This document shows, piece by piece, positions 16,883-23,778 of a stretch of DNA of 64,000 nucleotides. Each line of letters opens with the position of its first letter. Within the stretch, counting starts at the first letter, position 1. Below the pieces are notes generated by a model. It was not told the origin of the DNA. It was given only the letters and a program-made list of their open reading frames with translations, and ran no database searches. The translations under genes and the position numbers were made by a program. Origin of the DNA: Candidatus Lindowbacteria bacterium RIFCSPLOWO2_12_FULL_62_27 (GTDB lineage: Bacteria; Lindowbacteria; 2-12-FULL-62-27); the NCBI GenBank assembly GCA_001784175.1, contig MFPR01000001.1, positions 186,001-250,000 on the forward strand, given 5' to 3'.

Positions 16883-18103
16883 TTAGAGTTTCGCGCCCTT
16901 GGGGATGACGATGATGCCGCTCTCGCTTACGAAAAACCGCTTGCGGTCCTCTTCGAGATTGTATCCGATCTCGATTCCCTGCGGAATGCGAACCCCCTTG
17001 TCGACGATGGCCCGGCGGACCTTCGCGTGGCGGCCCACGTCGACCTTGTCGTACAGGATCGAATCCTCGACCTGCGCGTAGGAGTGGACAAAACACCCCG
17101 GTGAAAGAATGGACCTCAAGACCATGGCGCCGGAAATGATGCAGCCCTCCGACACCAGACACTCGACCGCATGGCCCCGCCGGGTCGGACCTTCGTCCAG
17201 GGCAAATTTGGCCGGCGGATAATCGATCGGATAGGTCCGGAACGGCCAGGCGACGTTGTAGAGGTTCAGGACCGGCGAAACGCTTCGCACATCCATGTTG
17301 GCCTCATAATAGGCGTCGACGGTCCCGACGTCGCGCCAGTACCCGATTTCCTTGTCGGTCATCCCCGGCACGCGGTTGGTGGCGAAATCGTAGGCGTAAA
17401 CGCGCCGGTGCGGGATCATCGCGCGGATGATGTTTTTTCCGAAATCGTGCTCGGAATCCTCATGCGCGTCGGCGTCCAGCTCCTCAATCAGCACGTCCGA
17501 ATTGAAAATGTAATTACCCATCGACGCCAGGCACCAGCCCGGTTTGGAGGGAATCGTCTTGCCCTCGGCCGGTTTCTCCTCAAACCCCACGATCTGCCAG
17601 TCCTCGTTGACCTCGATGATGCCGAACTGGTTCGACTGGTCCTGCCGCACCGGGATGGCGGCGATCGTGAGGTCGGCGGTCTTGCTCGTGTGAAACTCCA
17701 TCATCTGGTTGATGTCCATCTTGTAGACGTGGTCCCCGCCGAATACGGCCACCCGCTCGGCGCCGGAATCGACGATCAGGTTCGAGTTCTGGTAGATGGC
17801 GTCGGCCGTGCCCCGGTACCACACTTCGCCAATCCGCATCTGGGCCGGCACCGGGTCGACGTACATGCCCATGCTCCGAGGCAGGTTGTAGGCGACCATG
17901 ATGTGCCTAATCAGCGAGTCGGCCTTGAACTGCGTCAGGACCTTGATCTTGCTCAGGCCCGAGTTGATGAAATTGTTGAGCACAAAATCGATGATCCGGT
18001 ACTTGCCCGCAAACGGCACCGCAGGCTTCGCGCGGTCCTGCACGAGCGGCCCCAGCCGCGTCCCGCGACCGCCGGCGAGGATCATCCCAAGCGTGTTTTT
18101 CAT
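16883..18103 (-). CDS. glgC: Glucose-1-phosphate adenylyltransferase
   Basis: [50 protein letters not shown]. Confidence 0.97.
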
Positions 18104-18111
18104 GTTACTGC

Positions 18112-18140
18112 ATCATACTCCGCCGGCCCCGCAGACACAA
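18112..18140 (-). promoter_or_regulatory. glgC promoter
   Basis: TTGTGT-17-TATGAT, 8 nt before the ATG, no SD. Confidence 0.55.
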
Positions 18141-18147
18141 GACAGGT

Positions 18148-18384
18148 TCAAGGATGTACCCTCAAATCAAGAAAGGCGAGGATGCGCCCCTTTCGGTCGT
18201 AACGAATGATTTCTCCCGCTTCGGTCTCGACTTCGAGCGTCAAACCGTTCGACATGCCTTCAATTTCGGCCGTTCGAAGTCTCCAGATCCAATCGTCCAC
18301 CCGCTTTCGCCCCTCTTCGTCCAGCTCATACGAAAAGGCTTCACGAAAACGGCGGGAGTAAACGGCCTCGTATCGAATCCTCAC
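18148..18384 (-). CDS. Putative toxin, divergent RelE/ParE-like
   Basis: 78 aa, GTGA-coupled to a Phd antitoxin; N-terminus [13 protein letters not shown] is RelE-like. Confidence 0.5.
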
Positions 18385-18650
18385 GCCAGGCCGAATTCCT
18401 TCCGCAGGTCATCATACTTGCGGCCTTTGCCCGCGGCAATTTCGGCCCGGGCCTCCTGAATCCGTTTCATATCGCCGGGGTTCCGGAACAACCGCTCCAT
18501 CGCCTTGTAGGATTGATATTCCTTGAACGACATGAGCACGGCCGCCGGCTCGTCCCTGTGACGAATGAAAATCCGCCGCCCCCGCTTGATCTCCTTGACC
18601 AGCTTCATAAAATCCGCGCGCGCAACGCTCGCCGCAACCTCGTATGGCAT
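18381..18650 (-). CDS. Phd/YefM family antitoxin
   Basis: ARADFMKLVKEI..GRRIFIRHRDEPAAVLMSFKEY; SD AGGAGG upstream. Confidence 0.88.
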   Translation of the reverse strand: MPYEVAASVARADFMKLVKEIKRGRRIFIRHRDEPAAVLMSFKEYQSYKAMERLFRNPGDMKRIQEARAEIAAGKGRKYDDLRKEFGLA

Positions 18651-18676
18651 GGACGCCACCTCCTGTACTGTGTATA

Positions 18677-18705
18677 AGCATATGCCGGGTTGTAGCCTTT
18701 GTCAA
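18677..18705 (-). promoter_or_regulatory. Promoter of the Phd toxin-antitoxin operon
   Basis: TTGACA (18705-18700)-17-TATGCT (18682-18677). Confidence 0.65.
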
Positions 18706-18781
18706 CCGGCAGGGATGAAAAGAGGGGGGTTGACCCCTTTGCCTTGACTTTGGATGCGCGCCAAATTTGTATGGACGGCGC

Positions 18782-19783
18782 ATGAATTACATCGGCTTTC
18801 TGGTGACGGCCTTCGGTCTCTATGCGGCGATGACACTGGAGCACCTCCCACTCCATATCTTTTACGCCCCCAGCGCCATCTGTCTGATCCTCTTTATGGG
18901 CCTCGGCGGGACTCTCGTGTCTTACCGGTGGGCAGAGATCCGACGGGCCGTATCGGCGTGTTTCGACCGGGCAACCCCGCGGCCGAAAGAGGACTGGCTG
19001 ACGTACTCCCGAATTTTTTCGCTTCTGTCGAACTACACATTCGCCGCCGGGTGGATGGGCGTCATCCTCGGGACCATACACGTCCTCGGCAGCGTCGAGG
19101 AGGTGGATGGCGACATCGGGAAATTGGCCGCTGGACTTGCCCTGGCATTCCTTTGCCCTCTGATCGGAACGCTCATCTCCAAGTTTTTGTTCGATCCGAT
19201 GCGGAATTTTTCGGAACGAAAGGCGCTCGATACGGGGCCAGCAAGCGCGCCCGTGGAACAGGCGGCCGCGCCGGCCCCCACTCCCAATCTCCTCTTTAGA
19301 ATCGTTCTTTTCTCCGCATCCGCCCTTGTCTTATTGGCAATCGCCGTCATGGTTTCATGGAAGGTCGGGTCGATGCAGGCTGAGCACAGGCGCGACCGGG
19401 CTGCGACAAATCCGGACACCGCCCCCGTCATCCATAGAGACCGTACCACGATCCTCGACACCTTCCTGCTCGGCACGAAGCAGAAACCCGGCCTGGATAT
19501 CTCCATCCGCGATCAGGGGAAGATCCACCGGCTCCGATGCACCGTGTATCTCGGATATTCGCGCGACTACAACAGGAGCGGCTCCGGATTCTTCGAAGAA
19601 CTGCGGTCCCGCACGCCCATGCTGCGGGAAATCGTGATCCGCGTCCTTGGCAATAAAACCGCGGATGAACTCCAGCCGCAACATCTGGATGCGATTGAGG
19701 ACGAGCTTCTCAGCCGCATCAACGAAGTGCTGAATCACGGAACCGTCGTCGACATCATGTTCAGCGAATACGTCGTTGATTGA
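18782..19783 (+). CDS. Fusion of a truncated MotA/TolQ/ExbB-like membrane domain and a FliL domain
   Basis: N-half: APSAICLILFMGLGGTLVS, AAGWMGVILGTIHVL, LAAGLALAFLCPLIG, FLFDPM. C-half: TM helix then ELRSRTPMLREIVIRVLGNKTADEL...LLSRINEVLNHGTVVDIMFSEYVVD. Confidence 0.78.
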   Translation: MNYIGFLVTAFGLYAAMTLEHLPLHIFYAPSAICLILFMGLGGTLVSYRWAEIRRAVSACFDRATPRPKEDWLTYSRIFSLLSNYTFAAGWMGVILGTIHVLGSVEEVDGDIGKLAAGLALAFLCPLIGTLISKFLFDPMRNFSERKALDTGPASAPVEQAAAPAPTPNLLFRIVLFSASALVLLAIAVMVSWKVGSMQAEHRRDRAATNPDTAPVIHRDRTTILDTFLLGTKQKPGLDISIRDQGKIHRLRCTVYLGYSRDYNRSGSGFFEELRSRTPMLREIVIRVLGNKTADELQPQHLDAIEDELLSRINEVLNHGTVVDIMFSEYVVD

Positions 19784-19816
19784 TTTCGCCCGGGCGCGGT
19801 AGTAGTCTTTACGCGC

Positions 19817-20305
19817 ATGAAGAACACGGCTGAGTTTTCGCTCGAAAACATTCTCAAAACCGACAAGATCCGCCATCTGCGTCCCCACGTCGTGCCGATG
19901 CTGGGCCGGAAGGCCACCATTTCGGACGCGATCCGGGCGATGCAGACGACGCGGCGGAGCTGTGTCCTCATTTGCCACGGCAAAGAGGTGGTCGGGATTT
20001 TTACGGAACGCGACGTGCTCCTCAAGGCCGCGAATCGAGGGCTCGAGGCGTTCGACCAGACGCTTGACGCCGTCATGACGCCGAATCCCCGGACCATCTC
20101 CATCAACGATTCGATCCTTTCCGCCATCCGAATCATGACCGAAAAGGGGTTCCGGCACCTCGCCGTGATCGGCGAAGACGGAGAATGCATCGGGACGATT
20201 TCGATGCGCAATGTCCTCGGGTATCTTGCCGAGCATTTTCCGGAAACGGTCTACAACCTGCCGCCGGTCTCGGGGCAGGTCAACGAAGACAGGGACGGCG
20301 CCTGA
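19817..20305 (+). CDS. CBS-pair protein
   Basis: VVGIFTERDV, VMTPNPRTI, MTEKGFRHLAV. Confidence 0.9.
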   Translation: MKNTAEFSLENILKTDKIRHLRPHVVPMLGRKATISDAIRAMQTTRRSCVLICHGKEVVGIFTERDVLLKAANRGLEAFDQTLDAVMTPNPRTISINDSILSAIRIMTEKGFRHLAVIGEDGECIGTISMRNVLGYLAEHFPETVYNLPPVSGQVNEDRDGA

Positions 20306-20310
20306 CGGCG

Positions 20311-22194
20311 ATGAGCGCCAAGGAGCGGCGGATCGAGGACATCGATCACATCGTGATCAGGTTCGCTGGCGACTCCGGCGACGGCATGCAGCTCACCGGC
20401 ACGCAGTTTACCGATACCTCCGCCATCCTCGGCAACGACATCAGTACCCTGCCGGATTTCCCCGCCGAAATCCGCGCGCCCGCCGGGTCCCTCGCCGGCG
20501 TCAGCGGCTATCAGGTCAATTTTTCCAATTTCGACATCCGCACGCCCGGCGACGCGCCGAACGTCCTCGTCGTGATGAACCCGGCCGCCCTGAAAACCAA
20601 CGTGGGCGACCTCGAGCCCGGCGGCATCCTCATTTCCAATTCGGACGCCTTCGTCGCCGACAACCTCCGGCAGGCCGGCTACACGCAAAATCCCCTGGAG
20701 GACGGCACGCTCAGAAATTTCCGGCTTTATAAAGTCCCCATCACCAAATTGGTCGACAACGCCCTCAAGGAAAATCCGCTGTCATTTAGGCAGAAGGAAC
20801 GCTGCAAGAATTTTTTCGCGCTGGGGCTGGTCTACTGGATGTTCAACCGGCCGATGGAATCGACGCTGAAATGGATTCAGGACAAGTTCAAGAAAAACCC
20901 GGACGTCCTGGACGCCAACACCCGCGCGCTCAACGCCGGGTTTTATTATGGAGAGACCACCGAGGCCTTCGAAACTCGATACCAGGTCCGCAAGGCCATG
21001 ATCGCGCCGGGCACCTACCGCAAAATCACCGGCAACGAGGCGCTCGCGCTCGGCCTCATGTGCGCCGCCGAACGCGCCGGCAAGCATCTCTTCATGGCCG
21101 GATATCCGATCACGCCCGCGAGCGACATCCTGCACGAGCTGTCGAAACACCGGCGGTTCGGCGTGAAAACGTTTCAGGCCGAGGACGAGATCTCGGCGAT
21201 CGGCGCCGCCATCGGCGCGGCCTTCGGCGGGGCCATGGCCGTCACGGCGTCCAGCGGGCCAGGCATCGCGCTCAAGACGGAGGCCATGGGTCTGGCCATC
21301 ATGCTGGAGCTGCCGCTTGTCATCTGCAACATCCAGCGCGGCGGGCCGTCGACCGGACTGCCGACCAAGACCGAGCAGGCGGACCTTCTGCAGGCAATGT
21401 TCGGCCGGAACAGCGAGTCGCCGCTGGCGGTCATTGCGCCGGCGACGCCCGGCGAATGTTTCACGATGGCCTTTGAGGCGTTCCGGATCGCGGTCAAATA
21501 CATGACGCCGGTGATGGTCCTGTCCGACGGGTATCTCGCCAACGGGGCCGAGCCGTGGGCGATTCCGAAAATCGAGAGCCTGCCGGTCATCCCGGTCCAC
21601 CATCCGACGTCGAAGACCGACGGCGCGTTCCTTCCGTATCAGCGCGATCCCGGGACGCTGGCCCGGCCGTGGGCCGTGCCGGGCACGGCCGGATTTGAGC
21701 ATCGGATCGGCGGGATTGAAAAGGCGGACGTGACCGGAAACGTGAGTTACGATCCGGACAACCATGAGCACATGGTCAGGACCCGCAAGGCGAAAATCGA
21801 CGGCATCGCCAATGACATCCCCCACGCGGATATTTTCGGAAGTCCCGAGGGCGATCTGCTCGTCGTGGGATGGGGCAGCACCTACGGCGCGATCGTTTCG
21901 GCGGTCGAAAAGGCGCGCGCGGAGGGACTGGACGTGTCCGCCCTGCATCTGAGATATCTCAACCCGTTCCCGAAAAATCTCGGAGACGCCCTGAAACGAT
22001 TCCGGCGCGTGCTGGTGCCGGAAATGAATCTGGGACAGCTCCGGATGCTCCTGCGCGCCGAGTTTCTTGTCGACGCCATCGGGCTGAACAAGGTTAAAGG
22101 CCAGCCGTTCAAGATTGCGGAGATAGGCCGGAAAATCCACGACCTGAATCCCAAACAGATGCCCTCGGCTCGCCGGGCCGCGGCGGTCGCCTGA
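20311..22194 (+). CDS. korA: 2-oxoacid:ferredoxin oxidoreductase, fused gamma-alpha subunit
   Basis: FAGDSGDGMQLTG, PAEIRAPAG, YPITPAS, QAEDEI, QRGGPSTGLPTKTEQ. Confidence 0.95.
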   Translation: MSAKERRIEDIDHIVIRFAGDSGDGMQLTGTQFTDTSAILGNDISTLPDFPAEIRAPAGSLAGVSGYQVNFSNFDIRTPGDAPNVLVVMNPAALKTNVGDLEPGGILISNSDAFVADNLRQAGYTQNPLEDGTLRNFRLYKVPITKLVDNALKENPLSFRQKERCKNFFALGLVYWMFNRPMESTLKWIQDKFKKNPDVLDANTRALNAGFYYGETTEAFETRYQVRKAMIAPGTYRKITGNEALALGLMCAAERAGKHLFMAGYPITPASDILHELSKHRRFGVKTFQAEDEISAIGAAIGAAFGGAMAVTASSGPGIALKTEAMGLAIMLELPLVICNIQRGGPSTGLPTKTEQADLLQAMFGRNSESPLAVIAPATPGECFTMAFEAFRIAVKYMTPVMVLSDGYLANGAEPWAIPKIESLPVIPVHHPTSKTDGAFLPYQRDPGTLARPWAVPGTAGFEHRIGGIEKADVTGNVSYDPDNHEHMVRTRKAKIDGIANDIPHADIFGSPEGDLLVVGWGSTYGAIVSAVEKARAEGLDVSALHLRYLNPFPKNLGDALKRFRRVLVPEMNLGQLRMLLRAEFLVDAIGLNKVKGQPFKIAEIGRKIHDLNPKQMPSARRAAAVA

Positions 22195-22195
22195 C

Positions 22196-23266
22196 ATGGA
22201 ACCCGGAAACGGCGGGAGCGCGGCGACGACGACGGCGGCGACGGCCGCGCCTGCGGCGCTCACCAAAAAGGATTTCGTTTCCAATCAGGACATCCGCTGG
22301 TGCCCGGGCTGCGGCGATTACGCGATCCTGTCGTCGGCGCAAAATGTGTTTCCCAAACTGGGGATCCCGCGCGAGAATTTCGTGGTGATCTCCGGCATCG
22401 GCTGTTCCAGCCGGTTTCCCTATTACGTCAACACCTACGGCTTTCACAGCATTCACGGCCGCGCGCCGACGTTCGCCACCGGCCTGAAACTCGCGCGGCC
22501 CGACCTGTCGATCTGGATCGTCACGGGCGACGGCGACGGCCTTTCCATCGGCGGTAACCACCTCGTCCACATCATGCGCCGCAACGTCGACTGCACCATC
22601 CTCCTCTTCAACAACCGCATCTACGGACTCACCAAGGGCCAGACGTCGCCGACCTCCGAATTCAACAAGAAAACCAAGTCGACCCCGCTCGGGTCCATCG
22701 ACTATCCGATCAACCCCATCTCGCTCGCGCTCGCCTCCGAGGCGACCTTCATCGCGCGCACGCTCGATACGGACCCCAAACACATGGCCCGGATTTTCCA
22801 GCAGGCCGCCGAGCACAAGGGGACATCGTTCGTCGAGATTTATCAGAACTGCATTATCTTCAACGACGGCGCCTTCGAGCCGATCAGCGACAAGACCACG
22901 CGGGCCGACAACGCGCTCTTCCTCGATCACGGCCGGCCACTCGTGTACGGCAAGGACAGCCACCAGGCGATCCGGCTGAACGGCTGGCAACCGGAAGTCC
23001 TGACGTTCGACGGGACGCCGCCCGCTAATGTTGCGGTACATGACGAAACCGCCGTCGACCCCAGTTGGGCCTATCTGCTCAGCCGGATGGACCCGCAGGC
23101 CGGATTTCCAGTCCCGTTGGGCGTGTTCCGGCGCGTCACGCGCGACACTTATGAAAACCTGATGACCCGCCAGATCGAGGAGTCGCGGAAAAAATCCGGA
23201 CCCGGCTCCGCGAGCGAACTTCAGGCGCTCCTTACGGGCGAAGACACATGGACGGTGCCGGCATGA
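22196..23266 (+). CDS. korB: 2-oxoacid:ferredoxin oxidoreductase beta subunit
   Basis: WCPGCGD, SGIGCSSR, GDGDGLSIGGNH, YGLTKGQ. Confidence 0.95.
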   Translation: MEPGNGGSAATTTAATAAPAALTKKDFVSNQDIRWCPGCGDYAILSSAQNVFPKLGIPRENFVVISGIGCSSRFPYYVNTYGFHSIHGRAPTFATGLKLARPDLSIWIVTGDGDGLSIGGNHLVHIMRRNVDCTILLFNNRIYGLTKGQTSPTSEFNKKTKSTPLGSIDYPINPISLALASEATFIARTLDTDPKHMARIFQQAAEHKGTSFVEIYQNCIIFNDGAFEPISDKTTRADNALFLDHGRPLVYGKDSHQAIRLNGWQPEVLTFDGTPPANVAVHDETAVDPSWAYLLSRMDPQAGFPVPLGVFRRVTRDTYENLMTRQIEESRKKSGPGSASELQALLTGEDTWTVPA

Positions 23267-23778
23267 TTTGTCCGGATTGTGGATACGACAACTACCAGGG
23301 CGAGGAGGTCTGCGAGCGATGCCTCCATGATCTCACGCAGGTCGACACCGCGCCGCGCCCGAAAAATGAGATGCACCGCCACATCATCGAGGATCCCGTG
23401 TCACGGCTCAATCCCGCCGCACACCTCCTGTCGTGCAAGCCGGGCGATAAAGTATCGGATGTCATCGAGTCCATGAAAAAGCAGAGGCTCGGCTGCGTGG
23501 TGATCGAGGACAACCGGCGGCTGATCGGAGTATTCACCGAGCGCGATGTGGTCATGAAACTGACGGGAAAACCCGTCGATCCCCGCGTCACACCCGTCCG
23601 GGCCCTCATGACGTCGCCGGCCGAATCCGTCAAATCGACCGATTCGATCGCCTATGTGTTAAACAAGATGTCGATCGGGGGGTTTCGGCACGTTCCGATC
23701 GCCGACGAGTCCGGCCGCGCCACCGGCGTCGTCTCCGTCCGAAACATCCTCGAGTATCTCGCCGCGCAGATTCACTGA
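23263..23778 (+). CDS. Zinc-ribbon + CBS-pair protein
   Basis: MICPDCGYDN...CERC followed by IGVFTERDV and GGFRHVP; ATGA overlap with korB. Confidence 0.88.
   Translation: MICPDCGYDNYQGEEVCERCLHDLTQVDTAPRPKNEMHRHIIEDPVSRLNPAAHLLSCKPGDKVSDVIESMKKQRLGCVVIEDNRRLIGVFTERDVVMKLTGKPVDPRVTPVRALMTSPAESVKSTDSIAYVLNKMSIGGFRHVPIADESGRATGVVSVRNILEYLAAQIH

Follow-up and report, generated by a model that had tools for sequence, protein, structure and literature searches.

The stretch of DNA analysed here (the window) comprises 64,000 nucleotides of the genome of Candidatus Lindowbacteria bacterium RIFCSPLOWO2_12_FULL_62_27 (contig MFPR01000001.1, positions 186,001 to 250,000), and it contains, at positions 18782..19783 of the forward strand, a gene whose product joins a shortened form of the flagellar stator protein MotA to the flagellar protein FliL in one chain. 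An earlier note on this DNA, made from the letters alone, had described a single open reading frame (ORF) with four MotA-like transmembrane (TM) segments, a short loop in place of the cytoplasmic torque domain, atypical third and fourth segments, a Pro/Ala linker, a further TM helix and a FliL-like domain, with no motB, exbD or tolR gene beside it and no described counterpart, and each of these observations is upheld by the results below. The parts of the gene are as follows:

18782..19783, + strand: whole coding sequence of the mini-MotA-FliL fusion, 333 aa plus stop (ORF call, Pfam, full-length orthologues, contigs spanning the junction)
18785..18916, + strand: TM1 (residues 2-19), periplasmic loop with E20 and a YAPS motif, and TM2 (residues 30-45) (model helices, 32% identity to own MotA 3-58, loop co-varying with same-genome MotA)
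18917..19006, + strand: short cytoplasmic connector, residues 46-75, with one short helix (50-61), replacing the MotA torque-generating domain (model, BLASTP, alignment)
18986..19231, + strand: TM3 (continuous helix 69-103), periplasmic loop 104-111 (EEVDGDIG) and an extended TM4 (helix 112-150) (43% identity to own MotA 142-206, PF01618)
19232..19288, + strand: Pro/Ala-rich cytoplasmic linker, residues 151-169 (sequence; modelled with low confidence, score below 50 over 153-169)
19289..19360, + strand: TM5, residues 170-193, homologous to the FliL membrane anchor (BLASTP match to own FliL starts here; alignment)
19361..19447, + strand: low-confidence periplasmic spacer, residues 194-222 (score below 50 over 193-222)
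19448..19780, + strand: periplasmic FliL-C domain, residues 223-333 (PF03748 with 42.7 bits, Foldseek)

Both families are recognised on the same chain above their Pfam cut-offs, PF01618 (MotA_ExbB) over residues 63-147 with 26.3 bits (cut-off 22.9) and PF03748 (FliL) over residues 244-332 (cut-off 24.6); the NCBIfam equivalog models for MotA and FliL give partial matches, all far under their cut-offs (for MotA, for instance, 25.9 versus 340). The predicted structure of residues 1-155, obtained with 30 homologues as input, has a predicted local distance difference test score (pLDDT, the score used in the list above) of 94.2 and contains helices at 2-19, 30-45, 50-61 (short), 69-103 (continuous) and 112-150. 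In Foldseek comparisons this model matches the MotA/PomA chains 8ucs_C and three of 8brd with query TM-scores of 0.77-0.82 and root-mean-square deviations of 2.7-4.0 Å, and 6ysl_C and 8gqy_A with 0.78-0.79. Proteins of the ExbB/TolQ ('GIT') group have a small cytoplasmic domain and the PF01618 family in common with the fusion, but their query TM-score is 0.47 at most, the fusion has a MotA-type TM1-TM2 pair, and the ExbD/TolR proteins of this genome are already paired elsewhere. The model of the full-length protein has a pLDDT of 73.6, and its C-terminal domain matches the FliL-C domain of Helicobacter pylori (7sgn) with target TM-scores of 0.81-0.89 and FliL of Campylobacter jejuni (9hmf_O) with 0.86, stomatin SPFH domains appearing lower among the fold matches. 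A profile of three full-length homologues finds the same C. jejuni FliL (E 8.4e-11) and Bacillus subtilis MotA (6ysl, E 1.6e-10), the latter in two pieces (query 3-69 with MotA 6-71 and query 57-172 with MotA 125-236), so that the middle of MotA is absent from the fusion.

As modelled, the fusion is a five-pass inner-membrane protein, composed of a four-helix MotA core, a linker, a fifth TM segment and a periplasmic FliL domain. With the MotA N-terminus and the end of TM4 both in the cytoplasm, the linker would stay on that side of the membrane and TM5 would carry the FliL domain to the periplasm. As in FliL proteins (PF03748; 7sgn, 6ahq, 9hmf_O), a TM anchor is followed by a periplasmic stomatin-like FliL-C domain, but in place of FliL's cytoplasmic N-tail, rich in Lys and Glu, the fusion has the MotA-like four-helix bundle and the Pro/Ala linker; moreover, FliL is a single-pass protein encoded in the flagellar cluster, whereas the fusion has five TM segments and lies outside any flagellar cluster.

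Start, reality and rarity of the fusion gene

The ORF can also be read as 18767..19783 (+), from a TTG located five codons upstream of ATG 18782. From the ATG, the protein begins MNYIGF and, because all its homologues begin M-x-x-[IL]-G-F, the ATG is likely to be the start codon, with no obvious ribosome-binding site ahead of it. The public gene call at this locus, P0002 (242 aa, window 19055-19783), begins at Met92 within TM3, so that the MotA half is hidden and databases show a 242-aa 'FliL' protein, which may be the reason why the architecture went unnoticed.

A misassembly at the junction, a concern raised in the earlier note, is countered by contigs from two sequencing runs other than the possible source runs, one of run X6 spanning 18529-19391 and one of run X7 spanning 19012-20000, which bridge the junction with 0 differences each; in the two possible source runs, the whole stretch lies within one contig. 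Orthologues keep the architecture as well. Four genomes of the family were searched: that of the window (G000) and three sister genomes (G001, G002 and G003). Full-length orthologues of the same architecture are found in G003 (44% identity) and G001 (42%), and another full-length fusion, the metagenome protein P0003, is 45-46% identical; P0004 is identical to the protein of G003, and P0008 seems to correspond to that of G001, since its sequence matches the G001 ORF from the third codon. Among three fusion sequences, 100 columns are invariant, and they are distributed over both halves. To judge from these sequences, the fusion gene is real and under selection.

Of 1.84 billion representative proteins searched with a profile, 707 matched at E <=0.001 and, among the 150 of these that were listed, only P0003, P0004 and P0008, together with the truncated P0002 of the window itself, cover both halves in one stretch. 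Among 41 genomes, a full-length match is present only in G000, G001 and G003, that is, in three of the four genomes of the family, and in none of the 37 others, which have only the domain Bacteria in common with G000. A scan of genome contigs returned three loci (the fusion of a G003-like metagenome-assembled genome and two MotAs), and one of metagenome contigs yielded nothing beyond the contig of the window itself and a single MotA-like fragment. No paper describing a MotA-FliL fusion was found in the literature search, and the words 'FliL', 'fusion' and 'fused' occur 0 times in the available part of the text of a 2025 survey of MotAB proteins (PMC12505986). The architecture is thus rare rather than common, and is known so far only from a small, deep-branching lineage of uncultured groundwater bacteria. 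What is new here is an undescribed architecture built from the known MotA and FliL families.

Relation to the flagellar MotA and FliL of the same cell

The genome of the window (4.39 Mb, 94% complete) is that of a flagellated bacterium. FliG and a fliL-fliM-fliN cluster are encoded ~80 kb upstream of the fusion on the same contig, the canonical fliL lying between flgE and fliM/fliN, and a single motA-motB pair is found on another contig (C28). Canonical MotA and FliL are present in this genome and in all three sister genomes. One TolQR pair and one ExbBD pair are encoded on C18 and C28, both ExbD-family genes adjoining their own ExbB/TolQ gene; PF13677 has one match in the genome and PF00691 (OmpA domain) has two, one of them MotB.

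Residues 170-332 of the fusion, TM helix included, are 45% identical to the canonical FliL of the same genome (BLASTP). In the other half, residues 2-56 correspond to residues 3-58 of the genome's own MotA at 32% identity and residues 76-140 to its residues 142-206 at 43%, so that 19 residues of the fusion (57-75) stand for 83 cytoplasmic residues of MotA (59-141); the last ~58 residues of MotA are also missing. In a tree built by a quick method, with only Shimodaira-Hasegawa-like approximate likelihood ratio test (SH-aLRT) support, the N-terminal halves fall in a clade of 14 (support 99) that comprises four fusions, eight short stand-alone proteins and two domains of one G002 protein. This clade lies outside a clade of 20 canonical MotAs (support 95) and also outside a wider group of short or tandem MotA-like proteins. 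The periplasmic loop between TM3 and TM4 reads HVLGxxEExxGDxGKLAxG in the MotAs of G000, G002 and G003 and in the fusions, and exceeds by four residues that of the other MotAs aligned (12 of 12), suggesting that the N-terminal half descends from the lineage's own MotA. Both halves look like paralogues of flagellar proteins of the lineage.

The proline of the TM3 'YAPT' motif, present in 12 of 13 canonical MotAs, is found in none of the 13 members of the fusion/mini-MotA clade that were aligned, and the threonine of the TM4 'xTxxG' motif, present in all 13 MotAs, is likewise absent from all 13 clade members, 8 of which have a proline instead; the nearly invariant proline after TM4 (P139, in FDP) is retained in the fusion. 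In MotA, the TM3 proline and the TM4 threonine have a role in the ion path. According to the available part of the survey by Puente-Lelievre et al. (2025, PMC12505986), a flagellar A subunit is defined by four features: the four-helix 'square fold', an unbroken TM3, an interface for torque generation made of four or more helices, and an adjacent, plug-bearing B subunit. Escherichia coli is reported there to lose its motility when parts of that interface are deleted. The fusion has the square fold and the unbroken TM3; the model has only one short helix (50-61) between TM2 and TM3, so it lacks the torque interface, and there is no adjacent B subunit. Compared with the MotA/PomA ('FIT') group as described there, the fusion is alike in its four-helix N-in core, PF01618, continuous TM3, P139 and the periplasmic loops of the lineage's MotA, and differs in having no torque domain, no C-terminal domain, no adjacent B subunit, no TM3 proline and no TM4 threonine, and in carrying FliL at its C-terminus. 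Because the torque domain, the C-terminal cytoplasmic domain and both residues are absent, the fusion would have no means of driving FliG and is probably not an ion conductor.

The fusions also resemble the MotA of their own genome in detail. The MotAs of all four genomes were aligned with the fusion N-domains of G000, G001 and G003, and the 57 columns at which MotA differs among G000, G001 and G003 were scored, giving the following identities:

FUS_G000: 18 to MotA of G000, 10 to G001, 10 to G003
FUS_G001: 10 to MotA of G000, 20 to G001, 7 to G003
FUS_G003: 17 to MotA of G000, 12 to G001, 21 to G003

Each fusion is closest to the MotA of its own genome (18, 20 and 21, versus 7-17 for those of the other genomes), and the matched assignment sums to 59, compared with 32-47 for the other five permutations. 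Matching sites concentrate in the two periplasmic loops, where the motifs KLAAG, LAGG and KLASG are each common to the MotA and the fusion of one genome, LEHxHFAxL occurs in both G003 proteins and MAIEGxxxGLFxAPSA in both G001 proteins, and a five-residue loop extension is seen only in G001, in MotA and fusion alike. From these three genomes, the pattern suggests that selection has favoured either a periplasmic partner shared by both proteins or direct MotA contact. Gene conversion as its cause has no support, the DNA showing none of recent date: where residues are identical, third positions agree in 33-52% of cases for matched pairs and 32-50% for unmatched ones, and exact DNA matches are at most 10-11 nt and 9-13 nt long, respectively.

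Related modules and surroundings of the gene

The short MotA module is a family of its own, which stands alone, in tandem and, probably, fused to a kinase or a lectin. Members of the clade standing alone (P0013-P0018, P0021 and P0026) are 144-217 aa long. G002, which has no fusion, contains two continuous and paralogous ORFs of 613 aa (L025 2185-4026, +) and 629 aa (L024 3790-5679, -), in which a Ser/Thr kinase domain (PF00069, 173.8 bits) is followed by two tandem mini-MotA domains; since the gene caller split one of them (P0009, 326 aa), the kinase fusion is probable but not certain. Such a protein would be a receptor kinase with a membrane part derived from the stator core. Longer fused forms of the N-domain were sought among proteins of 584-2000 aa and none scored, which is weak evidence; the same scan did not recover the G002 kinase ORFs. 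The wider group of short MotA-like proteins (P0020, P0024, P0025, P0027, P0040, P0048, P0092, P0096, P0135 and P0142) has four TM segments, a short loop and often a fifth, C-terminal TM segment, with many tandem duplications of 340-540 aa; P0024 carries a C-type lectin domain, and the C-terminal helix of P0027 has a match to MotB_plug under threshold (22.7 bits versus a cut-off of 24).

The FliL anchor is also found in other settings. On contig C350 of G001, two proteins of 217 aa and 212 aa (L026 2156-2809, -, and 6550-7188, -) consist of a mini-MotA and a FliL-like TM segment, and end just past the membrane. The pair sits in a stretch that by eye appears low in G+C, among genes without family matches. 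On contig C17 of G000 (L008 1219-2184, -), a 321-aa protein combines FliG_C (PF01706, 83 bits) with a C-terminal TM segment nearly identical to the FliL anchor and has no periplasmic domain. FliG_C is the rotor domain that MotA pushes on, and this protein would be a membrane-tethered copy of it. No full-length orthologue of it was found in the three sister genomes, where only canonical FliG-like and FliL-TM-like partial matches were obtained. The available part of Liu, Roujeinikova and Ottemann (2023, PMC10127578) describes FliL alleles that have the N-terminal cytoplasmic and TM regions but not the periplasmic domain and that lose motility, which makes natural TM-only derivatives of FliL interesting. 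The G001 mini-MotA proteins and the G000 FliG_C protein resemble those alleles in having a FliL-type TM segment without periplasmic domain; the alleles, in contrast, are laboratory constructs, and the fusion retains the periplasmic domain. A second FliL-family gene in a flagellated genome also has a parallel in MotF of Sinorhizobium meliloti, as far as the accessible text of PMC9541039 describes it.

The fusion gene is surrounded by genes for a Phd/YefM antitoxin with a small partner, glgC, a major facilitator superfamily (MFS) transporter, a CBS protein and korAB. In window 17900-20700 there is no further ORF of at least 25 aa with a TM-like segment, and none for a B subunit (TM Asp, plug, OmpA-like domain). 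A sigma-70 promoter scan gave nothing usable. Directly upstream, on the opposite strand, 18148-18659 (-) looks like a toxin-antitoxin pair: a Phd/YefM-type antitoxin of 91 aa (PF02604) overlaps a 77-aa ORF without Pfam match. A similar pair, judged by eye from the ORFs, is located upstream of the G003 orthologue too. Two CBS-pair proteins, 19817-20305 (+) and 23248-23778 (+), flank the korA/korB-like 2-oxoacid:ferredoxin oxidoreductase genes, and the second has an N-terminal Cys-rich stretch that by eye may be a zinc ribbon. The first of these genes begins 34 nt past the fusion stop, so that co-transcription is possible, and was not seen at the G001 and G003 loci. On the window's contig, ~80 kb upstream and directly before the canonical fliL-fliM-fliN, L029 11550-14705 (+) is a 1051-aa ORF that by eye has FlgE hook-like ends and a very long middle insert.

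Possible roles of the fusion and their meaning

Most of what is known of the contact between FliL and the stator comes from low-resolution in situ maps, and the role of FliL is debated. It is tentatively proposed, with confidence a little short of even, that the fusion is a non-rotary accessory that mimics the stator, or a scaffold associated with it, in the flagellar motor. The torque-less MotA core, the complete FliL domain, the conservation of the protein, its flagellar-type relatives, the loop co-variation and the position of FliL at the stator are the reasons for this proposal. Arcs or rings of FliL encircle the MotB linker at the stator, according to the available part of PMC12222027. 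In the proposed mechanism, the face that the MotA-like core turns to the periplasm would be the same as that of the cell's real MotA, and the FliL domain, held covalently, would come to lie at the periplasmic level above MotA, at which FliL normally surrounds the MotB linker. The fusion could then enter stator/FliL assemblies, or contend for FliL or MotB with the real stator units, and the outcome would be a tuning of stator assembly or activation. The earlier note had suggested a stator modulator or decoy, with which the loss of the torque domain and of channel residues, the flagellar-like halves and the co-varying loops fit; the interaction itself, like the oligomeric state, the partners and the motility effect of the fusion, is inferred.

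Several results weigh against this proposal. The neighbours of the fusion gene differ among G000, G001 and G003, so a conserved neighbourhood is rejected and the gene stands alone; it lies ~80 kb from the flagellar cluster with nothing tying it to the flagellar regulon, and simple sigma-28 and sigma-54 patterns gave nothing usable in the upstream regions of three fusion genes, the own motA and the own fliL. G002 (91% complete) has flagellar genes and no full-length fusion, so the fusion gene is dispensable, and the module that probably follows a kinase in G002 is also compatible with a general membrane module. An origin of the mini-MotA clade inside the lineage's MotA was considered, but the tree does not show it, the clade lying outside the canonical MotAs, and this leaves the loop signature as the evidence for that descent. 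The matched assignment of fusions to MotAs is the best of six permutations in three genomes, and the FliL halves show no clear co-variation with same-genome FliL (identities to FliL of G000/G001/G003 are 24/15/28 for FUS_G000, 16/17/19 for FUS_G001 and 14/11/16 for FUS_G003).

The alternative that survives best, although it is judged unlikely, is that the short MotA domain is a general membrane module, used for anchoring, oligomerisation or sensing, that has left the flagellar system and takes FliL, a Ser/Thr kinase or a lectin as outputs, the fusion being an SPFH/stomatin-like scaffold unrelated to motility. Such a module would account for the clade members that stand alone or, at two loci of G002, in tandem after a kinase, for the wider short or tandem MotA-like group with its C-type lectin protein, and for a gene context that is never flagellar at the loci examined; FliL-C is, in addition, stomatin-like, and stomatin SPFH domains are among its fold matches. 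However, the FliL half, TM helix included, is a close paralogue of the cell's own flagellar FliL, the periplasmic loops track the same-genome MotA, and the fusion-bearing clade is found only in a flagellated lineage.

An alternative rotor is improbable. Five mini-MotAs around the sole MotB dimer would form a torque-less 5:2 unit, a free-wheeling or proton-leaking device that moves a FliL collar, or else a sink for MotB. The pore-lining TM3-TM4 pair is indeed the part most like the own MotA (43%, versus 32% for TM1-TM2), and, apart from its single MotB, the genome offers no spare B subunit. A complex prediction with four N-domains and two copies of MotB residues 10-80 (4:2, not 5:2) gave a score of 0.35, graded weak, against 0.00 for the best of three controls; its runs agree in at least 72% of contacts, with a partner pLDDT of at least 49. 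In the calibration of this score, 116 of 157 solved complexes came up to the mark, as did 2 of 215 mismatched pairs; at 0.60 or lower, only 18 of the 157 did so, together with both passing mismatches. As MotAB complexes have already been solved, the weak 4:2 score may reflect likeness only, or memory of those complexes. The TM3 proline and TM4 threonine are, moreover, replaced in all 13 clade members aligned, and a 1:1 fusion would bring five FliL domains, whereas the available part of PMC12222027 gives arcs of four in C. jejuni and cites complete FliL circles for other motors. A non-flagellar 5:2 ion motor, the other suggestion of the earlier note, is less likely, because there is no own B subunit, the Pro and Thr of MotA are gone and the nearest relatives are flagellar.

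That the gene is an artefact (a faulty join in the assembly or two genes read through as one) or a decaying pseudogene left from a duplicated motA-fliL region is highly improbable, since the truncated P0002 call and the lack of an obvious ribosome-binding site, which would agree with it, are outweighed by the contigs of X6 and X7 with their 0 differences, by four further full-length proteins at 42-46% identity conserved on both sides of the linker and by the N-domain pLDDT of 94.

A bolder reading, to which little credence is given, is that the fusion makes a natural 'torque-less stator', with five MotA cores, devoid of the FliG-binding domain, on the sole MotB dimer or mixed into MotA pentamers, each with its FliL, occupying motor or peptidoglycan sites and gating the availability of MotB and FliL, as a built-in brake or buffer of stator number evolved by duplicating motor parts. 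If this were true, the kinase- and FliG_C-linked relatives would be part of a lineage toolkit that targets regulators to stators via MotA-core or FliL-TM modules.

The host is uncultured, the gene is borne by a handful of genomes and every functional step is inferred. Within these limits, a natural covalent chimera of MotA core and FliL is independent genomic evidence for both acting as one unit, and structural studies of the MotA-FliL interface could use it as a construct that nature has already made. Should the loop co-variation hold in further genomes, it would reveal a shared periplasmic partner at the level of sequence, which is rare. The fusion also indicates that selection can maintain a MotA membrane core that has neither its torque domain nor a B subunit of its own, which widens the view of the fates open to parts of 5:2 motors, as scaffold, decoy or sensor.

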